DNA of 63,115 nucleotides, filler included, from 17 parts of 17 records of this genome joined end to end with filler, not necessarily neighbours in it, one strand, 5' to 3'; positions 9,937 to 59,759 are shown, counted from the whole stretch's first letter. The notes: a model not told the origin generated them from the sequence alone. Program-made: numbers and translations.

Positions 9937-10852
9937 GTAACCGGACTGCACGAGTGGGGACCCCGTGTCGATGTACACGCGGCAGCCCGGTTCACCCCCA
10001 CGCACCCCCCGCGCCGCGTCGGCCCGGCGCCCCTCGCTCTGGGTGTCATCCTGGGCGAACGGGGCATTTCTGTCCNNNNNNNNNNNNNNNNNNNNNNNNN
10101 NNNNNNNNNNNNNNNNNNNTTAATTAATTAANNNNNNNNNNNNNNNNNNNNNNNNNNNNNNNNNNNNNNNNNNNNCTCCACGCGCGATGTGCGGGCTGCC
10201 TGAGAAGTACTGAAAACTCGTAGAAAAACATTTTGTTAGCTACCCGTCCCCAAAGCAGTCAACTAAGAAATGCACTTTTGGGCGCGTTGTCGGTCGCCTC
10301 TTTTCTGGTCAACCAGAACGTTCGTTTTCACGCGATTCAACAAGTTGAAAGCTCTCACTGGCCCATTCCCCACAGCTCACGCAGAACCACTCTCAGACCC
10401 GACCAGTACCCAGGTTGTGGCGGGCTGAGTGAATTTAACGTAGTAATTCCAATCGAACTGTTTACATACATGTAGCCTACAATTGTAGCTATGCACGGAA
10501 ATCCGCGGGTACGGGAATGGGTTCTACCCGTATCCTGGAAAGCGAACGAGTGTACCACTGGGTTAATCGTCACGCAGTGTAGCCCCGATATTCAGCATTG
10601 TGCACTGAGGGCATTACCGCAGAGCTCATTGTTTTACCGGTATTCGACCTACTACAGCTGTACCCAGATGAATAGTACCGTACGTACATGCCCTCCGCAC
10701 CCTGTATTCTGCACTCTAAAACTGCATTATTAAAAACTGCATTAATTAGGACCAGGCGGTACAATGCCTTCCCCATGCCCGTGTGCACGCGTCGTGGAGC
10801 CATTGGGGAGGGGACGGATGGGTGCATGGTAAAGCTAGTGACGACAGGGGAG

Positions 10853-10887
10853 TGACAAGGGGTATAAGGCCCTTATGCCCTTTGTCA
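10853..10887. repeat. TGACA...TGTCA palindrome family, copy A
   Basis: TGACAAGGGGTATAAGG-C-CCTTATGCCCTTTGTCA: 17-bp arms, 15/17 Watson-Crick plus 2 G-T pairs, about 50 nt downstream of the kinase-PARP stop. Confidence 0.85.
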
Positions 10888-10936
10888 GCGGAAGGGGCAC
10901 AAAATGCAAACGCATATTCATTCCCGACAATTGTTC

Positions 10937-13419
10937 TCACTGCGGCCGAATGGTGACGAGGTATCGCGGGTACGCTTTTGCTTTGTCGTAGACGATGTAC
11001 TGCCGGCCGTATTCTTCCTCGCCCATCGGGTTGGTGCCGAATCGCCTCGCGTCGTTTCGCGAACTGCGGGACCCGTGGATGCCGAAGCTGCGTTCAGTCC
11101 CTTGCACAGAGTCGTACATGTACACATCACCCGCTGCACCATCTTCGATCGGCGGCTCGCGCACCAACGTATTGTCGCACTGCCAGCCAAGGTCCTTGGA
11201 CTGACCGAGGATGACCTCAGCGACCAGCAGCACGATGCTACCGTCTGCTGCTTTGTTCGGCCGTGGGAAGAGGTAGGCTGAGTAGATCGCGTGCTCTGCG
11301 AAGTAAGAGCCACGGCCGTAAGACCCTGCCCGCGCAAGCCTGAAGTCGAAGCCACCTTCCACTCGGCCGCCCGCATATATCTTCTTCAGCTCATCGGGGT
11401 CGCCGGACATCGCGTGGAAGCAGAGCCGTACGTTCGCCTTGTTCTCGGTCGTGCCACCACGTGCTGCGTTCGCGGGCTTACGCGCGGCGATATGCTTCGC
11501 GCGATCGAAGTCAGAAAGCAGCTCGTTGTTGTCGATCTCCTCCAGCCTCGTCACGACATGTCGAGGGAGGCTTTGCTGCACTCGTTCCTGGACCGTAGCC
11601 CACTGTTCGCAACCTCGAGCGAGCGGCGTTAATTTCCACCGCAGAGGGGCGAACAGGGCTGCTCTTTCGGCCTCGGAATGAAGCTCTGCCGCCCTCCGTT
11701 GCATAAGCGCGTCTGTCTCAAAAAAGCTCTCGACCTGAAGCAGTACAGCCGTCGGTCGACGGTCTGGCTGCTCGTGCATCAGCAGTGCCACCCACTGCGC
11801 CTCTGAATCGTTGCCGTCGATGATCACACTCACATCTGTGAGCGGGTAGTCAGCTGCAGCAGGAGGGTGCAGCAGGTTCAGCGCCAGCACGCCGAAAGAG
11901 TACATGTCACTGGCGGCCGACGGCTCGGCTCCAGCCAAGACCTCGGGCGCTATGAAACCACGGGTGCCAGTGACGCCAGCCATTGTCGTCGTAGCCGCAC
12001 TGAGATCCTTGCTCGTCTCAAAGTCGCAGATTCGCGCCGTGCCATCTTCTGCAATCAGGATGTTGTCACCCTTGATGTCCCGGTGCAAAATGTTCTTCTC
12101 GTGTATGCAAGCCAGTGCTAGCAGCACCTGCCGCAGCACCGACTGCTTTTGTGCTGCGTCTGGTTTTGTCGTCTGCACCCACTCGATTAGCGAGCCATAT
12201 TTGCACCATTCCATCTCGATGTACATTCTTCCCGAGTCCTCAAACACAGCACTGTACTTAATGATGTGTCGGTGGTTCAGACACTGCACACTCTGGACCT
12301 CCTTCATGTAGCCACGCATATCGTCTTTCAGAGGAAAAACTTTAAGGACGACATCAACTCCATTGAGCTTGGCCTTGGTTAGCCTGGTCGTGATCATCTT
12401 CTGGTCGTCGTAGTCAGCAAGCTGGCGGTCAGCCACATGTAGTCCATCGCTCCCCATGAAAGTCTTGACGTCATCGTTCGAATGCAGAAGCTCTGGGAAA
12501 TGTTCTACTGCGAGAGACACCAGCTGCACAACTACTCCCCTTCTCTCCGCACTGTTCTTACGGAGAGCTTCGCGGGCTGCATCCAGAGACTCTTTGACAA
12601 CATCGAGTGCCTGCCTGGCCTTCTGTGCTGCCTCACCATCACTACCGGCGCGGCGAACTTTGATCTCCGCGATTTCACTCTCTGCGTTACAAAATTTTAC
12701 CTCCTCACGCAACTCCTTAACCTCGTCCTGGAGCGCCTGCAACGCGTCCACCGATGATTTCGGCTCGGCGTCCTCGATCACCCGCTGGCACTCTGCGGCG
12801 ACTGAGCAAAAATCCGCTGCCTGCCTCTGTGCGTCACGCCACGCCATAAGCTCGATATGCACCGGAATCTGCGGCTCTGACCAGTAGAGCTCCGGCTCCG
12901 GCTCAGCATCGTCGACTTCAGCCTCTAGGCGCTCCAAGGCGTGGATGCGGTCTGCGAGAGCCGATTCAGGCGCTAGAGTAGCCAAGAGTTTCTCCGGACT
13001 GGCTATGAACTTTTCCCTCGCGGCATCTCGCTTCTTGCAAATTGCTGAGGTAGCTGCAGCATCTATCGATGGTGCCTTCAGCTGCTCTTGTAGGTCGTCC
13101 AGGTCGGCCTTCGCTTGAACGACATTCGTACGCATCGCCCAACTGACTTCAGCACGGTTTGTCAAACCAATCTTCACAAACTGAGCCGATGGGGCTAGGG
13201 ACTGCATCTCGCTGAGGGCCATCTGTACCGGCAGCTGCGATGTAAAGAACACTGCCCGCAGGTCTGCGAGCAAGAGGATGGCGAACAGCTCCCTCAAACC
13301 TCGGTCGGTGAGTCTCTCAAAGTCTCGGCTGGTGAAGTCCAGATAATGCTTGGATGCTTGTGCCTGCAGGGCCTGATACGCTGTAAGCATGAGCTCGTGC
13401 CCAAGCAGCACGCACTTGC
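10937..13419 (-). CDS. Coiled-coil / Ser-Thr kinase / PARP-like ADP-ribosyltransferase fusion, 5'-truncated
   Basis: Kinase motifs VVLKVF, HRDIKGDN, ICDFE, GTRGFIAPE, DMYSFG. PARP motifs LCFHA, GSYGRGSYFA, LLVAEVILG, YDSV, QYIVYDKAKAYPRYLV. Confidence 0.88.
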
Positions 13420-23907: not shown

Positions 23908-24154
23908 CGTGGTACCTTCAGTTGCGGCACCGGCGCGCGCGCGAGCGCACGCACGCCGCCGCGCGGCCGCGGCGGCGCCGCGCTCGCTGCACCAGCCTGC
24001 GCCAAACGCGTCGATCAGACTGNNNNNNNNNNNNNNNNNNNNNNNNNNNNNNNNNNNNNNNNNNNNTTAATTAATTAANNNNNNNNNNNNNNNNNNNNNN
24101 NNNNNNNNNNNNNNNNNNNNNNTCAACCTGCACACTTCACTGCTTTGCTTACAG

Positions 24155-25071
24155 GTAATTGGTGCATCCAAGGCCCAGTAGTAGATTTTCGCCACTCTAC
24201 CGACAAAGGTGAGACATGGACGGAGGAGCGTGTGAACGCGACTGGACCTTCCGACAACCTCTTCGGCGAGACAGCCGCTCACAACTCCAAGGTCAAGTTC
24301 GGTGCCCGTGAGACTGCAGCACCCCCCACGACGAGACCCCTTCTAGCCTTGTATGATTCATGTGCAGGCCTTGTGACTGGGTAACACAATGACCTGTCTG
24401 CTCGTTCAGCGCACTGGGTCGACTTCGGACAAGAACTCGAGCATAGCCCAGATGGAAAAGCTTACTTGGTTGGACACGGCGCGGACTCACCTGAGGCCAT
24501 CCAGGCGTGGATGCTCGGCGACCAGGTATACATGGCACGTGTAACGCCAACTATCGACAACATCAAAGACAAGAGCAAGTGGGAGTTCTATGCAGGTGGC
24601 CACGGCGCAAGTGCGAAATGGGTGGCCGGCGATATCAGCCAGGCCAAGCCTCTAGTTGAATGGCAGAACCATACGGGAGTCGTGACCATGACCTACTTCG
24701 CACCCATTAAGAAGTACGTCCTGTCGATATCTACGGCCACGATATACCCAATGATGACGCACCAGTTCGACACCTACTTTCTGGAGAGTGACAGCATCAC
24801 TGGTCCCTGGAACTACGTCACCTATATGTCAGAGTTCGGCCCGGAAGCATACTTCGTCAACCATCCTTCCAAGTTCAGCGCCGCCAAGGCTGACACAGCG
24901 AATAAGACATATGACGCTTTCTTGATGTACTCGGCCAACTTCGCCTTCCACGACAAGAACATCAAGCCGCCGAACAGTGCGTATCACATGAACTTGCAAC
25001 AAGCCCGGTTTCCGCTTTCGGATGCTTTCGCGGCCAAGCTTGAGGCCATGTATGCTGCTGAGGACGCGTGA
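24155..25071 (+). CDS. DUF4185-like / beta-propeller hydrolase-like protein, 5'-truncated (intron 24308-24409)
   Basis: Spliced product ...FRHSTDKGETW...KVKFGAPHWVDFGQELEHSPDGKAYLVGHG...DQVYMARV...WEFYAG...ESDSITGPW...FGPEAYF, with a BNR-like SxDxGxTW motif. Family call is from recognition only. Confidence 0.65.
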
Positions 25072-25389
25072 AGCAGTGGTGCTCTGGGTCTGTCATCTGT
25101 GCAAATTGATGCGGCCTACCCCGGTGCCTGCTGCTGGCGACGGGACTACCGTAGTAGATCTAGTATACTAGTACGTACGTCGAGTACGCGTACAAGCGCG
25201 CGCCCGGCTATGTGGTACTCGTACAGTGCCCAGATTGAGGGTATGGGAGGTATAGTTTGAGGTGGGGCGTTTTTGGCCGGTTTAACGACGGGATGTTTCA
25301 TGGGTGCGGGTTTGGGTTTCCGGTCTTACCCCTCTAAAGGCTCTAACGGTTTTACATGATGGTACACACCCCTTCGTCCTCCCCTGCAG

Positions 25390-27396
25390 TTAAGACGACA
25401 CAGCAGCCATAGCAGCAGCGTCGGCAGCTTCCTCGTGTACTACCCCAAGCCTACCACCTTCGAGATATTGCTTGCCATTGACCTCGATGGTAGGCGACAG
25501 GCATCGCAAGTGCACCCGGCGGTCCGCGCCCTCAGGTGGTGCCCAATTGTCCATTATCCCACGAAGCCGCAACTCTTCCTCCAGATCCGCGATGCGTGCA
25601 ATCGATCCGACCGTCACCATCCCTGTATACTTTGGTGGAAGTTTTTGCAGCGCTTCGTGACACCCTAGTTGCGGGCAAAAATTGGGCTTACTTACCAAAT
25701 TTTGCCCGCAACTAGGGTGTCACAAAGCGTTGGCACGAAAGTGGCTCCGTCAAACTTCTACCATCAGTCAAACTGCCGTTGTTCTGACACGTCAGTACAA
25801 TTCGAGAGGCATATTGACTTTCTCTCGAAAAATTGATTTCGTGTGATGCCTGTGGCAGTTTGAAAAGAGGGGCATTTCTCGGGTGCCAACCCGTTTAGCA
25901 TCTAAGACGGGAACCGACCTGCCGATTGTGGACTATCTGTGAGAAATCCGGTCAGCAGTGGCGTGCCAGCTAACAACACGAGCGCATGCCGCATTGCATT
26001 GTGATAATTACGTTTGGCGCCCTGCAATCTTGCTCGAGTGTTTTTCCAAGATTTTTCCCTTTTCCACGTGGGCTGCTAGTTTAGCTATGTCTGTGCTTTC
26101 TTTCGTATCGCCTGACATCGTTGCGTCAAGCTCTATTCGCTTCGCCATCTGCGTCCGAAAGCCTCCCGCCTAGAATTACACAGGAAACCTAAGAGCTTGC
26201 CATCAAGACGAGACAGCGGTTGCAAAGTGTTGCTCCTCTCCTTGTGCTCAGGGTCACTTACCTTGCGGGAATTCGCTGTAGTGTATGAGCCGGACTCCCT
26301 GAGCTGCACTTGCGCTACAGCCATTTTCGTCGGGTCACCTGAAGTCAAAGCTGGCGCTAATGCACCGATGGCTTTGGATACTTTGCTTGGAATATTCTCA
26401 AGATCTAGACGGGAACGCCATTGCAAGACGTCAGGCGTGGCCATGAGACACACTGTCACGACTTGCCATTGGTGTGGTAACGTGGAACGCACATATGTAG
26501 CGGTGGATGTAAAGCAGCTGGCAGTCTGTATGTGTCACCATCGTGTATCGATACGGCGACCCCGTCAGCACCTCAGCTTCACCCACCATGGAGCCCGCCC
26601 ACGCCATTTGAAATGTCGACTGTCGCACACTGTTTTTGTCCGCCACGAGCCCCTACACGTACAGTGCACGAGAGTGATGAAATTCACCGCATGCAGTACG
26701 TTAGCAGACACCGCACCTTGAGCTGGCCCTGCAACACCAGTACAACGTATTCTGGATGAGCCCCATCCATGAAAATCACTTCCCCACGTTTCGTCCATCG
26801 CTCACGCCCGAAAAGAGCCAGCTTGGCCAAACAGTCCTCCTCCACACTTGCGTACTGCCCAACGGCACATAGCTGATCGAGCAGCTTGAGTGTTGATCTT
26901 TCAATACATCTGTGGAACAGCTGGACGTCGGCTCTCGAGCTGATCTGGAGCAGCTCACATCGGCCCACAGCCCGGATGGTCGCTTGCGCGATGCCATCTT
27001 TCGACATGAAGGAATGTAGCGGATCGGAATCGACGTTGGCTGACATTGGTGAGATCATCCCAATTGCCTCAAATTCACCAAAGTATTCGCCTGGTGTGTA
27101 CGTCAGTACGGAAAGCACTTGTTCCTCGCCACTTGGGCTGAGTGCGTCGGCTTGCTTCTGTACAGATATCGGGTCAGAAGGGTGCGATTTATGTCGAGGC
27201 GAATGTGGCTTCCGCGCTGATGGTCCACCGTGTCCGCATGCACCCTGGCCACCACCACGAGTTCGTCTCGGTGTTTGCCCTGTTCGTTGTGATCTTCCTG
27301 TCTCCTTTCCTCTAGTTGAGATCCTCTGTGGCCCATTTCGAGTGGAGCCGTATGGGCTGCTTGCCATGAGCGTTGATGCAATTGATCTGGTATGTG
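25390..27396 (-). CDS. Cyclic-nucleotide-binding domain protein, multi-exon, 5'-truncated
   Basis: Two cNMP-binding domains: PGEYFGE...ATIRAVGRCELLQIS and RGEVIFMDG...VLQGQLK/AGSMVGEAEVL...YTMVTHTDCQLLYI. The 3' exon structure is tentative and is interrupted by the palindrome at 25657-25723. Confidence 0.7.
25657..25723. mobile_element. TGACA...TGTCA palindrome family, long copy D, within the putative last exon
   Basis: 29-bp arms GTGACACCCTAGTTGCGGGCAAAAATTGG / CCAAATTTTGCCCGCAACTAGGGTGTCAC (28/29) with a 9-nt loop. Termini are shared with copies A-C. Confidence 0.75.
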
Positions 27397-29578: not shown

Positions 29579-29934
29579 ACCATGGATTCGCGCTTGATCT
29601 CCCGGCACCACGGAGGGCTGCCGCGGATGGGCAAGCAAAGCAAGTACTGCGAGCGATAAAGTCTCTTGCCGATAATGACGTTAATATGGCTTTCAAGCCT
29701 CTATATTTGTGCAATAATGCAGTTTGATTGATACAGCGTGATGACCACAAAGACAGCGCATGTCGGGACAGACGACAGGCGACTCCGCCCGCGGTTGATC
29801 AGTCAGGAGTTTCCTGTGTCGTAGAGTCGGATAGACGCTTCCCGCGCTTTGACGTTGCGCTTTGCAGACGGCCATCGAATGCCCGAGAAGTGGGTTGCCT
29901 GCCAGGAGCGACAACCTGGTCGGGCACTCGCCGG

Positions 29935-30924
29935 TCACCGGCGAGTGCCCCACCTGGAAGCTGAGGTCAAGTCTTGGGAGTCCGTGAACACAAAGTGCAG
30001 CATCAGCGCCGTGCATGCAACAAACAACGCCAGTGCCCCTAAAATCAACGGCGGGAGCAACAGCCGGCGCCACAACGTCCCCGCCGACAGCTTAACATCC
30101 GCCAGTAAGCAGTGGCTCCACCAGCTGTACGCCATTACTGGGGCAGTGAGCCAGAAGTTCAGCTCGCCCTTCCCAAGCGGGTAAGCCCAGAGCCCACTGC
30201 GCCGATAGCTGAGAACGGTGTACGCCAGCAGTGCGCAGATAGTCCCAACGACCAGCCGACGCGATGCCTGCTGTCGCGTGACGTCAGGAACTGCGCCGTC
30301 CGGCACTTCGCGGAGAACTGCCTCAACGAAAACAAGCACCGCCGGCCCGAAGTTCGTCACGAGCAGATGGACCCACGGCGCCACACGCCACCAGGCGACC
30401 GGCGCACCAGTGGGTGGCAGCGGGCACACCCAGCTAGCGGTGATGTCAAAGTCTGAGACAACGACGGTCAGCAGCACGAAAATCAGCAACAGCGCAGCGA
30501 AGGTCGAGGTGCCGAAACACACTGGCCACCCGATCTCGAGCAGCGGCTGGAGCTGTCCCGCGAGTGGGGAGTCTGGCGCCCAGCTCTGAAACGTTTTGCC
30601 GCCCCAGTACGCTGCAGAGAAGACCAGCGCCCAGCTCGAGAGCAGCGCCCACCTCCCGCCGACTGCAGCCAAGGGATCCGCGGTCGGTCCGCATGTTTTG
30701 AAAGCCAGAGCACAGGCCCAGCTCACCGCGCCTGCCGATGCGGCGTGCCTCACGCGCTGAGTACGCTCGGCGCTGTCCAGCTCATCCCAGCCTATATCGT
30801 CGCCATCCGCTCCCTCGCTCGGCAGCACCAGCTTGCCCTCGGCGGTGCGCCGCCACGCCGGCGAGCGCGAGCGGGGCGGGCGCCGAGCGACCTTCTGCTG
30901 CTGCCTTTGCGGCGCTGCGTCCAT
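29935..30924 (-). CDS. Multipass membrane protein (possibly FAR-17a/AIG1-like)
   Basis: 329 aa with about 7 TM segments; WVHLL...P..L..VE and GLWAYPL resemble AIG1/ADTRP features. Confidence 0.55.
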   Translation of the reverse strand: MDAAPQRQQQKVARRPPRSRSPAWRRTAEGKLVLPSEGADGDDIGWDELDSAERTQRVRHAASAGAVSWACALAFKTCGPTADPLAAVGGRWALLSSWALVFSAAYWGGKTFQSWAPDSPLAGQLQPLLEIGWPVCFGTSTFAALLLIFVLLTVVVSDFDITASWVCPLPPTGAPVAWWRVAPWVHLLVTNFGPAVLVFVEAVLREVPDGAVPDVTRQQASRRLVVGTICALLAYTVLSYRRSGLWAYPLGKGELNFWLTAPVMAYSWWSHCLLADVKLSAGTLWRRLLLPPLILGALALFVACTALMLHFVFTDSQDLTSASRWGTRR

Positions 30925-30975
30925 CTGTTCAGCCAGCCACTACAAGCCTGCCCCCCCCGATACGGCCTTCCCCCG

Positions 30976-35706: not shown

Positions 35707-35990
35707 TGTCGCGCTAAAAGGACGGTGTGGTATGATTGTGGAGCCGCCTGGTGCGTAAGTACCATTCAGAACATGGTACCTTGAACCCTTCGCCTTCGAG
35801 CACTCCTTACAAAAACAGTTCTAGTCCCGTACCGCTATCAACGCGAAGATGGAACGTACATGATGCTGCCGCGGCATGACCAAGCGCCACCTAGGCAAGC
35901 TAGGGCATCATGCAGCAGCCGTGGTTTCGATCGTTTGCGACGGGAATGGTCCAAGGCGACGGACTCTCGCTGAGGGACCGACGCCGACAC

Positions 35991-36019
35991 TGACACCGGT
36001 CATAAGGCCTTATGACCGG
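35991..36019. repeat. TGACA...TGTCA palindrome family, copy B (cut by contig end)
   Basis: TGACACCGGTCATAAGG|CCTTATGACCGG is a perfect palindrome up to the contig break. Confidence 0.85.
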
Positions 36020-39326: not shown

Positions 39327-39374
39327 GTGACACCGGGCATAAGGCCTTCTAGCATGCCTTATGCCAGGTGTCAC
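39327..39374. repeat. TGACA...TGTCA palindrome family, copy C
   Basis: GTGACACCGGGCATAAGGC-CTTCTAGCAT-GCCTTATGCCAGGTGTCAC, arms 18/19. Confidence 0.85.
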
Positions 39375-39704: not shown

Positions 39705-42700
39705 TCACCATTCCACAACCACTGTCAGCTTTTGCTGGTAAGCCATCGTTGGGCAGCGCACAACCAACACATGCCATGGTCCATCACTTCTAAGCCACCA
39801 TCCAGGCCTTCCACTACTAGCTCCAGGATCGACACCAGTCGACGGTACATGCTGCGCGTTGCAATGGACGCTAGTGGCTGCGCGCGACTTCGGTGACAAC
39901 AACTCAACCTGCTGTGTACGAGTCAGGGGGGCAAAGCCATGATTTCCGCCGTGGATAGCCTCGATCCCCACGCTCACGTTCCTAGTGTTCGCTATTTGCG
40001 ATGCCAAAAACTCTTGGTATTGTGCCTCTTGGTATCCTAGTCCTTCTCCACGGTCCTCGTACAACCTGCCGGTCCCACGTTGGGCATTATCGCCTGTATT
40101 AGGAACAGGGAATACCTTCCACACTAGTAAGGTTGCCACTGTGCTCCGGTTCTGCGCTGGCTCTGTATTGGTCTTCATCGGAATAATCGAACCGGCCCGA
40201 ACCCAAACAGGTATCTCGTCAATCGCAAAGCTTCCATGGACTGTCACAGGCCCAGTATGCAACACCGCGGTTCGCTGGCACCAGCTGTACCACTCGCCCC
40301 TACCCTCGTCACGGCACCACGGCACATTAGGAGTGCACTGCTCTATACGCAATGCCTTACAGGGTTCCAACACAAGAGGGGAGGTGGACCAGCTTACGGC
40401 GGAATCCAGACCGTACGACTGGTGCGAAGTCCCGCGATGCTGCTACTGCTGCCAATGTCACCGAGATTTGTGCCAGCATGAGCCTACGAACACACCCGGC
40501 GTTAGCAGCGATCGACATACTGAAGTCATTAAAGCGTGTGACTTACAATTGCGGCGACCAGAACCGATGGACCGAACAGGTAGCTTTGTTTGTCGTTGTA
40601 AGCCTCATCCTCCTCGGGAAAATCGTAGTATACTGGATGGTTGATCGTGATGCCACTAGTGTAAGCCTCGTACGCTGCTGTATAGATGTACGGCATCAGC
40701 ATATCCCGCAGTTGGAAGGCGGTCGTGATCGCATGCGAATAGGTTTCATCGACCATGTAGTCCCATGGTTGGCATGAGCACTCCGCATCACAGTGCGTGC
40801 GGAACACAGGTGACATCACGCCGAATTGCACCCTACAACATTTCCAAAAACACACGTTTGTATGCTCATTTGCACATTCATTTTTCAATTTGATCTTGCA
40901 AGTGTAAAAAAGACTGAGCTTGTACCATACCAGCGCAACCATAGCTCTGGCCAACTGCACATCTTGAGGGTGTAATTGTATCCAGCATACTTGCCCGAGA
41001 TCATTGGCTGCTGTGGCCAGTCTGGCCGTGTATTGTCCTGGTCTGGATCGAATCCCCCAAGATCGTGGGTGAAGTGCACACCGGTGTTCGCAGCTGTCGC
41101 CGACTGATATATTTGGTAGCCAAGCGTGGCCCATGCTGCAGGAGTATCACCAGAGCCAGCGAGTGGGTAGCGATGCTGCCCAAGTCCACCCATCGGAGTC
41201 ATCACTAGTCCACGCTTCCCGAGCGCCTCCATCCGCCGAACATGCACGTGCGTAGACCAGAGCAGCGGTGAGCCTCCCTTATTGTCAAACGGGCACTGAA
41301 ACCAATATGCTTCATCAGCACGACCCATATAGCCTTTTGACTGGCTGTCGTAGTCAGTCCAGAGATAATCTATCGCTGAGACAGAACCATTGGTGCGTGC
41401 GTCCAAAGCGTGTTGATAGACGGCATTGGTGAAGCTGCGGTTCGTCCACGCGCATTGTATCGTGTCATTCTTCGCAGCGTTGACACCGAGGGCCTGAGCG
41501 ATATCTGTGTAGAACACTTGGCACGGATCGAGCCCAATGTAGTCGTGCGTGTTCACCATTAGCTTGAGATTCTGGTCATAGTGCAGCCAGTCCGTGAATG
41601 CATTTGGGTGTGTGAACAAGCTGTGGTTCCAAGAGTAGCCACCGTAACCTTTGCAATCTTGTGCCATCGCTCCGTTCTCCTCGATGTGCCATCCCACGTC
41701 AAGAACTAGCGCATGCAATGGCAAATCGTGCTGCTTGTACTCTGCTAGAATCGCCTTGACTGTGGCTTGATCGATGCCCGGCTTCCAGTACTTCGAGTAC
41801 CATATACCGTAGGCGCTGTAGTCCATCATCGCAATCGGCCCAGCGACGCTCACGTAGTCCCTCATCGCTTTACGGTATTCGTGACCGTGTGCAAAGATCA
41901 TCCAGTCACGATAATTTGTTGAGTACGGGCGTTCCACTCGCCAACCACCACGTCCGACCCAGGTCTGCTTCTCGTCTAGCAGGGCGGCACCACCGTCGTC
42001 GTGGATAGCCCAGCCGTCCCTAGAGACGAGGCCCTGCGCCATTCGTTTAGGAAACCACCGCGAACATTCCTTCGATCCAGCGTAGCAATCAAACACATCA
42101 TTGCTACTGTTGAGATTTCCTTTGCCAACTGGCTGCGAATGAAAACAGGCAGGAAGCGCTGTTGGACCTGACTTCCCGTGCTCCGCTCTATTCCGCTCAT
42201 CAGAATCGTCACGATAGCAGCAGCCGAGCGCGCTGCATGCAGACTCGTTAGTGGTTCCGATAGGCCCACAGGGGCGACGGTCATGGCCAAACACACGGCA
42301 GCTATCCATAGTGTCCGGATCGTTCGAGATCCAGGTCTTGTTTTGACCGCCGTTCTGGAAGCTCACGTGGAGGATGCCTGGCCCGAACCGTGGCACTGGA
42401 TCCGCTGGAGAGAGCGACGTCGGGGTGAGCGTCGAGTTTGGACGAGGCAAGGAATCTTTCGCATTTGGATCGTACCGCACTTCCACCTTGGCCGTGCGTA
42501 CAACAAGCGCACCGCCGTCGATCGAATACGTAAAGGGGGCAGCGATGGAGCGATTGATCCAGGTCACGCTCGGGCGGTCCTCGAAGATGCCAGTCGCCGA
42601 CCACTCAGCCCGGAGCATGGAATCGGAGTGGACGGTGATCCGCACTTGGCCAAGGATGACAGTGTTGCTGACAGCCCGCGCTTCCTCTGAGTCGCTACTA

Positions 42701-42747
42701 CAAGCTGCCAGTCCCGCCGCCACCACCACAGTGAGGCACGGCACCAT
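39705..42747 (-). CDS. Secreted GH31 alpha-glycosidase with a trefoil-like insert, multi-exon
   Basis: Signal peptide; trefoil-like CGPIG...ACSALGCCY; GIWYSKYW, LVLDVGWH, LWTDY (nucleophile), GSGDT (acid/base), HDLGGF, RW/VQFG..SP..RTH (intron 40833-40930), LRDMLMPYIYT, IPVWVRAGSIIP, LYEDRG. Confidence 0.9.
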
Positions 42748-42971
42748 TAGTCAGTCCGATCCCGGAGTCGGTCTATATCGCGATGCCTCTCCGAGTCGGC
42801 GCGCGCGCTCCGTCGCGTCCTGCGTGCGGCGCGCGCGCGCCGGCCGCGAGACGACCCGCGCGCGCAGGCCGNNNNNNNNNNNNNNNNNNNNNNNNNNNNN
42901 NNNNNNNNNNNNNNNTTAATTAATTAANNNNNNNNNNNNNNNNNNNNNNNNNNNNNNNNNNNNNNNNNNNN

Positions 42972-55969: not shown

Positions 55970-56571
55970 ACTAGCTTGTAGCTAGACCGTCTACAAATGC
56001 AAGCTGTGCGTGCGTGTGTGCCACGCACGTCATGGCATCGATTGATCCAGTGAGCACTTGTTCTTCCCCGCACACACACCACCACACCGGGCCCACCCAC
56101 GCACTCGCTCGGAGGCCACACAGCACACGATGCGAGCACACCGAGCACGCCAACACGCAACACGGCACAGATGACAGAGACCGATCACAGAGGGTGGCCG
56201 CAAATGCATGATACTATCTAGTATCACCGCTCCAGCATGCACTCCAACTNNNNNNNNNNNNNNNNNNNNNNNNNNNNNNNNNNNNNNNNNNNNTTAATTA
56301 ATTAANNNNNNNNNNNNNNNNNNNNNNNNNNNNNNNNNNNNNNNNNNNNATAAGACATACACGTGTATGTCTTATGTGGCGGGCAGACTCATCACATCGG
56401 CTGCGCTCGCGACGTGCTCTTTGAACAGACACACAATTGATTTGGCTGGGGATCCAATGATTAGTGCAGAGAACGTTGACCACGTTTCGTCACGGTAGAC
56501 AACGATTGCCACCGACCGACTCGTTGCGGCGGGTGCACGGCATTCATCAAAAACAACAATGCATTCATTCC

Positions 56572-59268
56572 TCACCAGTGCCCCAGGTCGGGCCATGGGA
56601 CTATACCATCGGTGAGCATGACATGCAGCGCGAACAGACCAATCGCCAGCAACCCACCACAGACTGCCCACACAACACGCCACACGTCTGCACGCCAAAG
56701 ATTCCTCGCCGCGATCGCATCGATCGCATGCAACTCATCTGCCACTTGCGACACAATTGTCGAATTGCCAATTTCCTCGTCCCTGCTATCGTGTGTGTTC
56801 GGGTCCGTGGATAGTGCAGACAGGCCCTTATCAGGGGATTGGTAGTTGGGGCTGATTGACACCCGCATGACCTGCTCGTGGAGATAGTCGAACACGGGAT
56901 CGGACAGTGAAGAGAAGCAGCAGCCTGCCGACACGGCTGAACGTAGACACGCAAGAGCCTGCTCCTCGTCACCCACGCTCGACCCTCGTGTATTGTCGAG
57001 CTGGCAGGTGGCAGCCGCTATTATCTGCGCTCGAAGCCATATCCAGCGACTAGTGGGCGGGCTGCGACCACTGTCGGCGAGCACTGACTCAATTCGAATC
57101 GGTGGCATCAATGCATCCATGTAGACCGTTGCAGTGCGCCACAACCAATTCGCTCGGCCATCTTCATGACAAAGATTGAAACAACACCGTCGATGGCAAC
57201 GTAGTGCCCTCTCCACCGCCCTCGACGTGTCCTCTTCAACCTTCAAAGCTTCGGTGCTCCGACCCAGCTCGCGGAGAGTCCGAATGAGCCCCGGGGCGGC
57301 GAGGAACGACCCTACGTTTGATGGTCCTAGTAACCGCTGTAGCATCTCGTGTGCTCCTGCAAAAAGCTCCACTGCCGCAATTTTGTTGCGGTTGGTGGAC
57401 GCCGTCTGTGGTGATCCACTGCCGCCGACGCCGCCGACACCGCCGACGCCTGCGCCGTTCATCTTGGAAAGTAGCCAAGCAACACGCACAGCTAGCATTG
57501 CCAGCTTGCATTGCTGTGAAAGATCCATAGCCAGCAGCGTAAGCATGCCGAAAATAGCGGTCAGCACACTGAGCGTCAAGTACATGGCGGATGTTCGTCG
57601 CAAATGGTAGCTAGTAGCAAACAGGCAGAGCCATGCACCCCACGCGCCGATGATCCCAGACGCCCAATTCACTATTCTCGACGAGGAGACGCAAACGTTG
57701 ATGAGTGGTGGCGTCCGTATCTGGTGGCGACTGCGCATGCCGTACAGCTGCATACCGCAGAGCCCGACCACAGCCCAACCAAACACTCCAAGGCCCAAAA
57801 ACAAGAATGCACGCATGCGCCTGCGGTGGAGCTCTGCCTCCCCGAGCGAGGTCGGCGAGAAGACCTGAAGGTAGATAAAGAGAGCGAAAGACACTGCGGA
57901 GACGCCGAAGTAGCCAAGCCCAGGAATCAGCACGATGGCAGACGGGTGCCTATTCACGCACCGCAGAAGACTCGCGCGACAGCATCCGTAACCATGCCGC
58001 TCCACTTCCTCCCTTAGCTCGGCAGGCCTGAGCGCGCGCGAAGTGGGGTTGACTCTTGTCAGCAAAGCTCGGCCAGCATCGACGAGCCAGCTGAAGAGAG
58101 CCATCCGAATCGCATCGTTAAGCGCGTGAAAACTACCTTCACTCGAGCGAATGAGGCCAAAAATATTGTCCTTATCTGGAGGGTGTGTAACCTCCGCGTC
58201 CCTTGCGTCGAGGCCCAAAATCAAGCTTTCAAATTTGGCGAAATTCTCGGATAGTGCTACTTGCATTGCCTGTTGTTGCAGCCGCGAGAGGACGACTTCA
58301 GCTCGGCCGCCTTCCACTTCAAGGCCTTTGTACATCTCATAAAGGCACCATACTCGCGTCGGTGGCCGCGGGTTGTGCCATGGCTCCATGCAAACGAGCA
58401 CGTGAGAGCAAGAAGAGAGGACCCTCCCGAAACCACCGCTGCTTGTAGACTGCATCTTCTCCCAGTTCGGCATGTCCTCTGCGGCTGCCATGCAGCCGGG
58501 GCAGTCTGCGTTGCACGGGCTGGCCATGTGCCCTTGCATTCCGACCTTGTCTGGAGGTGTGTGCCAGTGCTGTATCACTGCGAAAATATCGACCCAGTAG
58601 TAGTGGTCTGGGTGCTGCTCAGCATGTTCGCAGAGTGCTGCGACCAGCTCTTCCCATGGCGAATCCCATGAATGTGAGACAAACGAGCAGGCCTGTCCAA
58701 CGAAAGGAACGGCGCGGCAAGCTCGGTCGCCCCAGCCAGGCAGCTCCACGTAGCGACAGTAGCGTTCGTCAGTCTCCGGCTTGATGATTAGCTTGTGCAC
58801 ATCCCGTGTCGACAGAAAAGGGCGCTTCCGGCGCTGTCGCAGGTCTGACTTGAGCAGGTTTAGCTTTTCGCTCACCTTCTTTTTCTGACGCATGCGTACG
58901 GAATTCTGCCGCGTTAGACCGCCTTCAGCTGTTGGCTGCGCATCGAACTTTCGCAACTCTCGTTGGACCTTCTGGATTTCGTGCTCTAGATACGCGATGG
59001 CTGCGGCCGTGGCCTCGCGCGCCAGCTCATCGCGACCTACTACCTTCTCTCTTGTGAACATGCGCAAAAATTCCGCAGACACTGCGCGACCCTCGATGTT
59101 CGGGTTTCGGTGAACTATCAACCCAGTGACGGGGTCCACGACCACGTCAGGCGCCACCGTGATCTCCAGCGCGACGGGCCGGTGCGGCCGCGAGTACGGC
59201 ACGCTCAGCATCTCAGAGCCGCCGGCGCCGCCACTGCCGCCGGCGAGCAGCCCCTCGGACAGCGCCAT
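56572..59268 (-). CDS. TIR/HET-like domain plus transmembrane protein with a degenerate TPR-like tail
   Basis: FVSHSW...YYWVDIFAVIQH...PWHNPRPPTRVWCLYE, then 4 TM helices, AVELFAGAHEMLQRLLGPSN (KLC-TPR-like) and a C-terminal TM. Intronless, 898 aa. Confidence 0.7.
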   Translation of the reverse strand: MALSEGLLAGGSGGAGGSEMLSVPYSRPHRPVALEITVAPDVVVDPVTGLIVHRNPNIEGRAVSAEFLRMFTREKVVGRDELAREATAAAIAYLEHEIQKVQRELRKFDAQPTAEGGLTRQNSVRMRQKKKVSEKLNLLKSDLRQRRKRPFLSTRDVHKLIIKPETDERYCRYVELPGWGDRACRAVPFVGQACSFVSHSWDSPWEELVAALCEHAEQHPDHYYWVDIFAVIQHWHTPPDKVGMQGHMASPCNADCPGCMAAAEDMPNWEKMQSTSSGGFGRVLSSCSHVLVCMEPWHNPRPPTRVWCLYEMYKGLEVEGGRAEVVLSRLQQQAMQVALSENFAKFESLILGLDARDAEVTHPPDKDNIFGLIRSSEGSFHALNDAIRMALFSWLVDAGRALLTRVNPTSRALRPAELREEVERHGYGCCRASLLRCVNRHPSAIVLIPGLGYFGVSAVSFALFIYLQVFSPTSLGEAELHRRRMRAFLFLGLGVFGWAVVGLCGMQLYGMRSRHQIRTPPLINVCVSSSRIVNWASGIIGAWGAWLCLFATSYHLRRTSAMYLTLSVLTAIFGMLTLLAMDLSQQCKLAMLAVRVAWLLSKMNGAGVGGVGGVGGSGSPQTASTNRNKIAAVELFAGAHEMLQRLLGPSNVGSFLAAPGLIRTLRELGRSTEALKVEEDTSRAVERALRCHRRCCFNLCHEDGRANWLWRTATVYMDALMPPIRIESVLADSGRSPPTSRWIWLRAQIIAAATCQLDNTRGSSVGDEEQALACLRSAVSAGCCFSSLSDPVFDYLHEQVMRVSISPNYQSPDKGLSALSTDPNTHDSRDEEIGNSTIVSQVADELHAIDAIAARNLWRADVWRVVWAVCGGLLAIGLFALHVMLTDGIVPWPDLGHW

Positions 59269-59759
59269 CTCCCCAAAGGAGCCAAAGCCCGATCTCTATG
59301 GGTGGAGAGAGAGGCGATCAGCAGCGAGCCACGCCGCGGCGTTGCCAGCTTATCTGATGTAGAAATCGCGAGTGGAGACGCGCCAACGCCCAACCGCCAA
59401 CGGCCGGCGGCGAAATCCGAAAATCGATTTCTCACGAATGACGATTGACGATACTCGAGGAATATTAGAATCGAAGATTCTAATATAAGAACGGAAACTG
59501 AGCCGCTGACGGANNNNNNNNNNNNNNNNNNNNNNNNNNNNNNNNNNNNNNNNNNNNTTAATTAATTAANNNNNNNNNNNNNNNNNNNNNNNNNNNNNNN
59601 NNNNNNNNNNNNNGCCGTCCGTCAATCACCCCAAGTTCTTCGAGCTGAGCATTTCGTCCCATAAACTTCAGTGCCCAGGTTGGCTCCTGGATCGTAACAC
59701 ATGCAGCCTGTGACTTCAGCCCGCCGGTGGTAGGAAGATCGAAGAAGGGCGCCCAAGCG

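Follow-up and report, generated by a model that had tools for sequence, protein, structure and literature searches.

The palindrome at 25657-25723 and its surroundings

The DNA analyzed here (the window) is a stretch of 63,115 nt made up of 17 contigs of 3-6 kb, which are joined via N...TTAATTAATTAA...N spacers, and the element in question is a near-perfect palindrome of 67 nt located on the contig at 24123-27396. On the minus strand, this contig carries a gene encoding a cyclic-nucleotide-binding domain, followed by the palindrome and then by a small lineage-specific open reading frame (ORF), the first ATG of which begins 36 nt downstream of the palindrome end; a neighbouring gene lies on the plus strand. 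The positions of these features and of three sister palindromes found elsewhere in the window are listed in Table 1. The palindrome is best explained as a passive repeat resembling miniature inverted-repeat transposable elements (MITEs) or foldback elements, situated in the non-coding leader of the small ORF, and the probability of this reading is put at about 55%. The first-pass annotation of the window had proposed that the 67 nt, whose exact removal restores a reading frame, are either a recent disrupting insertion or a non-canonical, structure-defined hairpin intron or precisely excising element; its observation is partly confirmed and its interpretation partly supported.

Table 1. Positions of the palindromes, ORFs and introns discussed in the text
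Feature	Position	Strand	Remarks
Palindrome core (target)	25657..25723		29-nt arms, 28/29 paired; 9-nt loop at 25686-25694
Extended palindrome	25648..25732		38-nt arms at 92%; -63.4 kcal/mol, z = -14.5
Small lineage-specific ORF, MVTVGS...	25355..25620	-	cut short in the window by 2 extra nt near 25390
12 codons (EALQKLPPKYTG) between palindrome and first ATG	25621..25656	-	similar in relatives P0002 and P0003; not in P0006 and P0025
Upstream open frame of the first-pass annotation	25724..25894	-	57 codons, no ATG; coding unsupported
Candidate GT..AG intron, 71 nt (GTGACA...GAAG)	25653..25723	-	palindrome plus 4 nt
Upstream cyclic-nucleotide-binding-domain gene	26431..27396	-	domain divided over two ORFs by a putative 64-nt GT..AG intron
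Intron of the neighbouring gene	24308..24409	+	102-nt GT..AG, removed in RNA runs X15 and X16
Sister palindrome A	39327..39374		GTGACACC / GGTGTCAC termini as in the target; 12 nt from contig start
Sister palindrome B	35990..36019		cut by contig end; ~283 nt downstream of the stop of an ankyrin-kinase-TIR ORF
Sister palindrome C	10852..10888		~48 nt past the stop of the kinase-PARP ORF 10940-13417 (-)

The 67-nt palindrome was confirmed by the sequence itself, by a repeat finder and by folding. Its arms pair perfectly over 24 bp, followed by a U.U mismatch and a further 4 bp, so that the arm length and the loop reported earlier stand, with one mismatch in the arms. Folded as RNA, 25657-25723 reaches -50.8 kcal/mol (z = -12.2, 0/200 shuffles as strong), and the outer 24-mer is present in one copy per strand, where none was expected in 100 shuffles. 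Over 25648-25732 the RNA forms 30 contiguous pairs, a 1x1 mismatch and 4 pairs; the helix thus continues 6 pairs (one of them G.U) past the 67-nt borders into both flanks, indicating that the 67-nt boundary is not marked by structure. The left flank ends with CGCTTT and the right flank starts with GAAGCG, and the cut can slide by 1 nt (G) only. The loop contains GTAAGT. The smaller features described in the first-pass annotation are all present, namely the in-frame TAG, the 20 open codons, the TACTGAC..GTGTCAG segment ending at 25784 and the GTTGGC at 25890, as is the downstream ORF with 88 codons at 25393-25656 plus a stop.

An artefact of amplification or assembly, in which the sequence of a single-cell genome has folded back on itself, would fit the origin of the ORF relatives, which stem from assemblies amplified by multiple displacement amplification (MDA) and built in SPAdes single-cell mode (PMC8599508), and would also fit the palindromic contig ends seen several times in the window (e.g., 56350-56375). 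However, a 394-nt contig of another run and another haplotype (X14), spanning 25613-26006, carries this palindrome unaltered, loop included, at the corresponding position. The fold-back chimera, which the first-pass annotation had listed among the outcomes that would speak against it, is excluded because of this independent haplotype, and the chance of an artefact is close to negligible.

The X14 contig retains the palindrome without any internal difference, and departs from the window in the flanks only, by A>G at 25739 and 25813, by a T inserted after 25726 and by 1 nt missing at 25868. Both 1-nt indels of this second haplotype are found within 283 nt upstream of the palindrome. Although X14 is filed as RNA, it covers 24308-24356 inside the intron of the neighbouring gene in unspliced form, and its contigs may be DNA or pre-mRNA; retention of the hairpin in X14 therefore does not test splicing. 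In X1, a DNA run, 25333-25552 is without cover, and loose ends were observed at 25651, 25694 and 25749, where contigs go on into unlike sequence. These loose ends could mark further arm copies or breaks of the assembly graph at the hairpin, and no conclusion was drawn from them. A DNA contig skipping the palindrome was not found in X1 or X14, an absence that weighs little since contigs only were searched.

A family of short palindromes, probably in non-coding DNA

Short hairpins number 5 in the window, whereas 30 Markov resamples average 0.13, which is a clear enrichment, and the inner motif GGGCATAAGGCC at no more than 1 mismatch has 5 matches in the window against 0.17 expected. When half-elements of the target and of its sisters A, B and C are aligned, TGACA does not vary, and the TGACA(C/A) termini are followed by a GGGCA(A/T)AA block. 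The terminal sequence GTGACACC is identical in the target and in palindrome A, while the target differs from all three sisters by 8 extra nt that appear symmetrically in its two arms. The sisters themselves lie downstream of the stops of long Pfam-bearing ORFs, and thus in non-coding DNA. For palindrome A, this is the stop of the DUF5110-bearing ORF at 39708-40442 (-), about 330 nt away, which itself follows a GH31 ORF at 40888-42750 (-). The target belongs to a previously undescribed small repeat family. No paper on short palindromic repeats in Picozoa, the group to which the host probably belongs, was found in a search of literature listings, and a literature search on the terminal octamer returned only unrelated primer-type matches.

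MITEs and foldback elements are short non-autonomous DNA repeats built of terminal inverted repeats. The target is like them in being short, non-coding, composed almost entirely of two inverted arms and placed in gene-flanking non-coding DNA, and in having several copies with common termini (target, A, B and C). It is unlike them in that neither a target-site duplication nor a second copy with the same interior was found. Of the kinds of element compared, MITEs and foldback elements fit best, as a resemblance rather than as membership because a target-site duplication is missing and mobility would be conjectural. When homologous sites are compared for presence or absence, the paralogue P0002 reads across without the element, and the only other haplotype seen has it. 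The disrupting insertion named in the first-pass annotation has some support, from the absence in P0002 and from the termini and inner block common to the three other palindromes. A further kind of excised element, the ciliate-type internal eliminated sequence, is TA-bounded and missing from the rearranged form of the DNA; the target is unlike it, with borders T|G and C|G.

The element is a real genomic palindrome of 67-85 nt and, taken as a MITE-like repeat, would be one of a family of short GTGACA-ended foldback repeats in a picozoan-type genome, lying on the minus strand in non-coding DNA between the cyclic-nucleotide-binding-domain gene and the small ORF. As some 71 nt are missing from the paralogue P0002 at this point, the element would have originated through insertion or through an inverted duplication, and removal by a special splicing route would play no part. 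If transcribed, a leader stem of -50 to -63 kcal/mol would be expected to hinder ribosome scanning or to yield small RNAs rather than message. Such a reading, if true, would be of modest value, in that a family of short palindromic repeats would be described from Picozoa for the first time.

Several results weigh against the MITE-like reading. Flanking direct repeats are lacking at the target and at palindromes A and C, and B could be judged on one flank, so no target-site duplication is seen; the 21-mer of the target interior, at no more than 3 mismatches, matches only its own two arms in the window. Any mobility is conjectural, since no second copy of the interior was found either in the window or in three public collections. 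The family was defined from 4 elements in 60 kb, two of them at contig ends. On the RNA side there is a gap, as the sole RNA-library contig retaining the hairpin comes from X14, the run that also holds the neighbour's intron unspliced. In addition, the extra 71 nt relative to P0002 are bounded exactly by GT (25723) and AG (25653), as an intron would be, and the protein-like LPPxYxG conservation shared with P0002 and P0003 reaches the palindrome edge upstream of the ATG, so that coding sequence may abut the element.

Searches of the three public collections with the 20-mer and 24-mer of the arm gave 0 matches in viral contigs, 1 in metagenome contigs and 1 in genome contigs. The latter two are one and the same Limisphaerales (bacterial) sequence without a palindrome and were rejected as chance, as was the single match of the sister-family pattern in viral contigs, which also lacks a palindrome. 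No transposase domain was detected among the 31 of 71 ORFs of at least 170 aa that were scanned (the longest at each place). Separately, a 43-nt palindrome at 29915-29957 (-35.4 kcal/mol) is centred exactly on the stop of a 334-aa ORF (29938-30939, minus strand) that matches no Pfam family.

Intron and functional-hairpin readings

The arithmetic of the first-pass annotation is correct in that deletion of 67 nt restores a frame, but it carries no evidential weight, being within chance. A random frame in the G+C-rich window is open for at least 20 codons with P=0.60 and for at least 57 codons with P=0.28, and in contig 24123-27396 alone with P=0.52 and P=0.18, respectively; at P=0.52-0.60 for 20 codons, restoration of the frame is uninformative. 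Upstream of the element, only 1 of 3 frames over 25724-25894 is open for 57 codons. The peptide encoded there matches no Pfam family and has no similarity with the N-terminus of P0002 (985/2000 shuffles score equally), GC content by codon position does not separate the frames, and both haplotype indels (25726 and 25868) fall within this frame. The base inserted in X14 is 3 nt from the proposed junction, within the supposed 20-codon exon, and therefore the frame is broken after 67-nt removal in that haplotype. It was also reported that internal GT/AG pairs fail to restore the frame, which holds for the internal pairs; however, there are 69 GT..AG pairs that enclose the element and leave the frame downstream of it open, 43/69 of them with at least 8 open codons before the donor, and one of 94 nt begins at the palindrome's first base in the very frame of the first-pass annotation. 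The GTAAGT of the loop was rejected as a donor after inspection of the sequence by hand, with no acceptor maintaining the conserved frame. More generally, the ORF sets of Picozoa genomes are unspliced Prodigal calls (PMC8599508), which makes reading-frame arguments on them fragile.

P0002 is the only paralogue that reads far upstream, and it was compared with the window in ungapped form, anchored at KLPP, over 169 deletions around the palindrome. The best fit removes 71 nt, aligning ATFVPT.. with ATFEPK.., and would join ...ATFVPTL to LQKLPPKYTG. This score was reached by 13, 38, 39 and 11 of 1000 shuffles for stretches of 10, 11, 12 and 14 residues, lengths that were picked after the fact; at 16 residues the fit is not significant (289/1000), and at 8 residues another deletion wins. 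In contrast, the product of the exact 67-nt deletion scores -4 to -11 at every stretch length, so that homologue alignment, which the first-pass annotation had named as a check, lends the QRF|EAL junction no support. If anything, the comparison points weakly to 71 additional bases in the window relative to P0002, in another frame. That frame lacks an ATG, and stops interrupt it 12 and 14 codons upstream. For residues 1-52 of P0002, a search of 5.8 billion sequences returned P0002 alone.

None of the 4 runs (contigs only) shows a joint across the element, and the site is not covered by any spliced RNA contig. In X15 and X16, the neighbouring gene is expressed in spliced form, but neither run has a contig over 25223-27396, hence they are uninformative on the small ORF.

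Hairpin-forming and transposon-derived introns are known from several protist groups, of which those of Micromonas, Aureococcus and others were reportedly treated by Huff et al. in 2016. Such introners (PMC9860276, PMC12130899) are transposon-like elements with inverted ends, delimited by canonical splice sites together with their target-site duplication and present as many near-identical copies in unrelated genes. The target would resemble them under the 71-nt deletion, in bringing its own GT and using a nearby AG, though the P0002 fit is weak and 69 compatible pairs exist; it is unlike them in having no near-identical copies (interior 21-mer, no more than 3 mismatches, in the window) and no target-site duplication. 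The introner elements of Amoebophrya have end inverted repeats of 8-20 nt forming a hairpin that would bring the flanks together, direct repeats of 3-5 nt overlapping the exon/intron borders, junctions confirmed by RNA-seq and genic copies in the thousands (PMC7789003). The target shares inverted repeats at its ends (29-38-nt arms) and, under the 67-nt deletion, non-GT-AG borders, whereas it has the 1-nt slide and no direct repeat, and, in the 60 kb examined, the three related palindromes lie past stop codons; no junction was seen. The nonconventional introns of euglenids (PMC12501133, PMC3935182, PMC4770533) have variable, non-canonical borders, with a stable stem that holds the two ends close to each other, and follow a code of 5'-N3-CDG ... 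CH'G-N5-6 before a purine (PMC12501133). The ends of the target also pair in a stable stem of -50.8 kcal/mol, but that stem runs 6 pairs past the junctions; positions +4 to +6 are ACA (CAC with the 1-nt slide), GGT occupies positions -8 to -6 and GGG positions -9 to -7, and only the purine after the cut fits. The code is absent at both ends of the target, and the lineage differs from that of the euglenids with which the first-pass annotation drew its analogy.

Excision of exactly 67 nt (GT..AC) at the stem base, joining ...CQRF to EALQK..., is accordingly given very little credence. The upstream frame is the only open one of the three, the ends pair, the haplotype difference at 25739 is synonymous in that frame, and hairpin-ended non-canonical introns do exist in Amoebophrya (PMC7789003) and in euglenids (PMC12501133). 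Against this stand a frame openness within chance, an upstream peptide without homologue, the failed alignment with P0002, the base inserted in X14, a stem running through the proposed junctions and leaving them unmarked, a border slide of 1 nt without a 3-5-nt direct repeat, the absence of the Euglena code, the lack of a joint in the contigs of 4 runs and the GT..AG boundaries of both introns evidenced on the contig. With the sisters non-coding as well, no support is left for a structure-defined intron or precisely excising element, and the 67-nt proposal rests on a reading-frame coincidence. An ordinary spliceosomal intron made by the element, introner-like and 71 nt long with a GTGACA donor and an AG 4 nt past the palindrome end, or a larger GT..AG intron containing the element, is unlikely but the main rival. 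It would have the best P0002 fit of the 169 deletions, GT..AG boundaries, a donor resembling the RNA-confirmed GTGAGA, a size between those of the contig's two ordinary introns (64 and 102 nt) and the GTAAGT in the loop. However, the stops 12 and 14 codons upstream and the missing ATG would require a 34-nt micro-exon, the fit depends on post hoc lengths and fails at 16 residues, another deletion being best at 8, and the extra nt of X14, 3 nt from the donor, breaks this frame as well. The 30-pair stem would enclose both splice sites along with any branch site, one suitable GT..AG pair is expected anyway among 69 frame-compatible ones, the N-terminus of P0002 has no other homologue, and the sister elements are outside coding sequence. 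Extended to the family, the proposal becomes one of introner-like behaviour for the palindromes with GTGACA ends in this picozoan lineage, with removal up to the next AG (here 25723-25653) or by a stem-guided route; it is clearly improbable. Since GT starts either end, a copy within a gene would bring a 5' splice site in both orientations. If introner-like or stem-guided removal were true, Picozoa would gain their first reported introns of transposon origin, or their first hairpin introns, adding one more independent lineage to the few where mobile hairpins create introns and providing a very small, symmetric model element.

A functional hairpin, either a precursor of small RNA (hairpin RNA or miRNA-like) or an element directing 3'-end formation or termination in the upstream gene, is doubtful, somewhat more so than an ordinary GT..AG intron. 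In its favour, all three sister palindromes are found 48-330 nt past stop codons, the cyclic-nucleotide-binding-domain gene precedes the target on the same strand, two haplotypes preserve the stem perfectly, and the hairpin weakly resembles miRNA models in Rfam. The likeness is to MITE-derived miRNA hairpins, near-perfect palindromic hairpins of pre-miRNA size, but the best match (mir-548) scores 29.5 bits against a gathering score of 90. Moreover, identity over 67 nt is expected anyway between haplotypes about 1% apart, some 700 nt separate the hairpin from the nearest supported stop (26431-26433), RNA ends are unreadable from contigs, and four elements are too few for a positional rule. The passive MITE-like repeat thus remains the preferred explanation.

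The small ORF family, the host lineage and neighbouring genes

The family of the small ORF gave 19 matches in a word-indexed search and 13 representatives among 1.84 billion sequences in a profile search. All 13 are short but for a 180-aa ORF and a 1997-aa protein, the latter being matched only over a short stretch that is found in 8 places. The family matches no Pfam family, a homologue search returned no longer relatives of the small ORF, and a search for related loci in metagenome contigs by means of the family alignment yielded 229 pattern matches, of which 0 were confirmed. From DWTPPEG onwards the members are strongly conserved up to their end, whereas the part before it is unevenly conserved, with conservation starting at most about 12 codons before the ATG; the LPPxYxG segment before the first ATG is common to the window, P0002 and P0003, and is not found in P0006 and P0025. 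Most members end in C(T/N)IM, which we take to be a CaaX-type (prenylation) motif.

The members of this family (P0001-P0035), about 85-135 aa in length, have the invariant core W.PPEG..RRVHLR...PT.EV..K.YL..GRLG, and their homology stops at differing points in each copy, as if many copies were truncated or interrupted. In the window copy, the 2 extra bases near 25390 give an end in ...AAVSS and leave the conserved GEDEGVCTIM tail out of frame. X14 is without these 2 nt and P0020 has the tail intact; the difference in the window would reflect a null allele, if not a misassembly of the amplified genome.

Picozoa are an uncultured group, the sister lineage of red algae, with genomes that are only fragmentary and single-cell. 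The host of the window, an uncultured marine protist, is taken as picozoan because the EukProt relatives of the ORF adjoining the palindrome are named Picozoa sp. COSAG02 and COSAG05, and one EukProt ORF (P0021) is identical to the window's own small ORF; the assignment remains an inference from these matches. The contig is eukaryotic, since one contig each of X15 and X16 skips the 102-nt GT..AG intron of the neighbouring gene, the donor of which is GTGAGA. A second intron is suggested by the cyclic-nucleotide-binding Pfam domain, with profile positions 2-30 in one ORF and 38-78 in the other, between which a 64-nt GT..AG intron may be placed. The published Picozoa assemblies were produced by MDA and SPAdes single-cell mode, and their 'proteins' are unspliced Prodigal ORFs (PMC8599508).

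Palindromic contig ends occur at several places in the window. A perfect 26-nt palindrome (56350-56375) opens contig 56350-59513, an 11-bp stem is present near the end of the same contig (59480-59513), and others are at 35990-36019 and 39327-39374. Hairpins seem to break the assembly, or some of them seem to be amplification artefacts, and hairpins at contig ends probably fragment Picozoa assemblies.

Beyond the small ORF, the window contains many long unbroken ORFs for polysaccharide degradation (GH10, GH28, GH31, GH32, DUF4838 and sulfatase) and also encodes multidomain signalling proteins (kinase-PARP, ankyrin-kinase-TIR and macro domain). Past the second exon of the cyclic-nucleotide-binding-domain gene, at 26007-26534 (-), more open stretches with good splice-like sites were observed, e.g., AAG|GTAAGT at about 26262, and the upstream gene may therefore have further exons and end closer to the palindrome than 26431. 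On the plus strand, the RNA contigs of the neighbouring gene (X15 and X16) depart from the window at 25146 and continue in unlike letters that are not poly-A, which could be a strain difference in the 3' untranslated region or a further splice.

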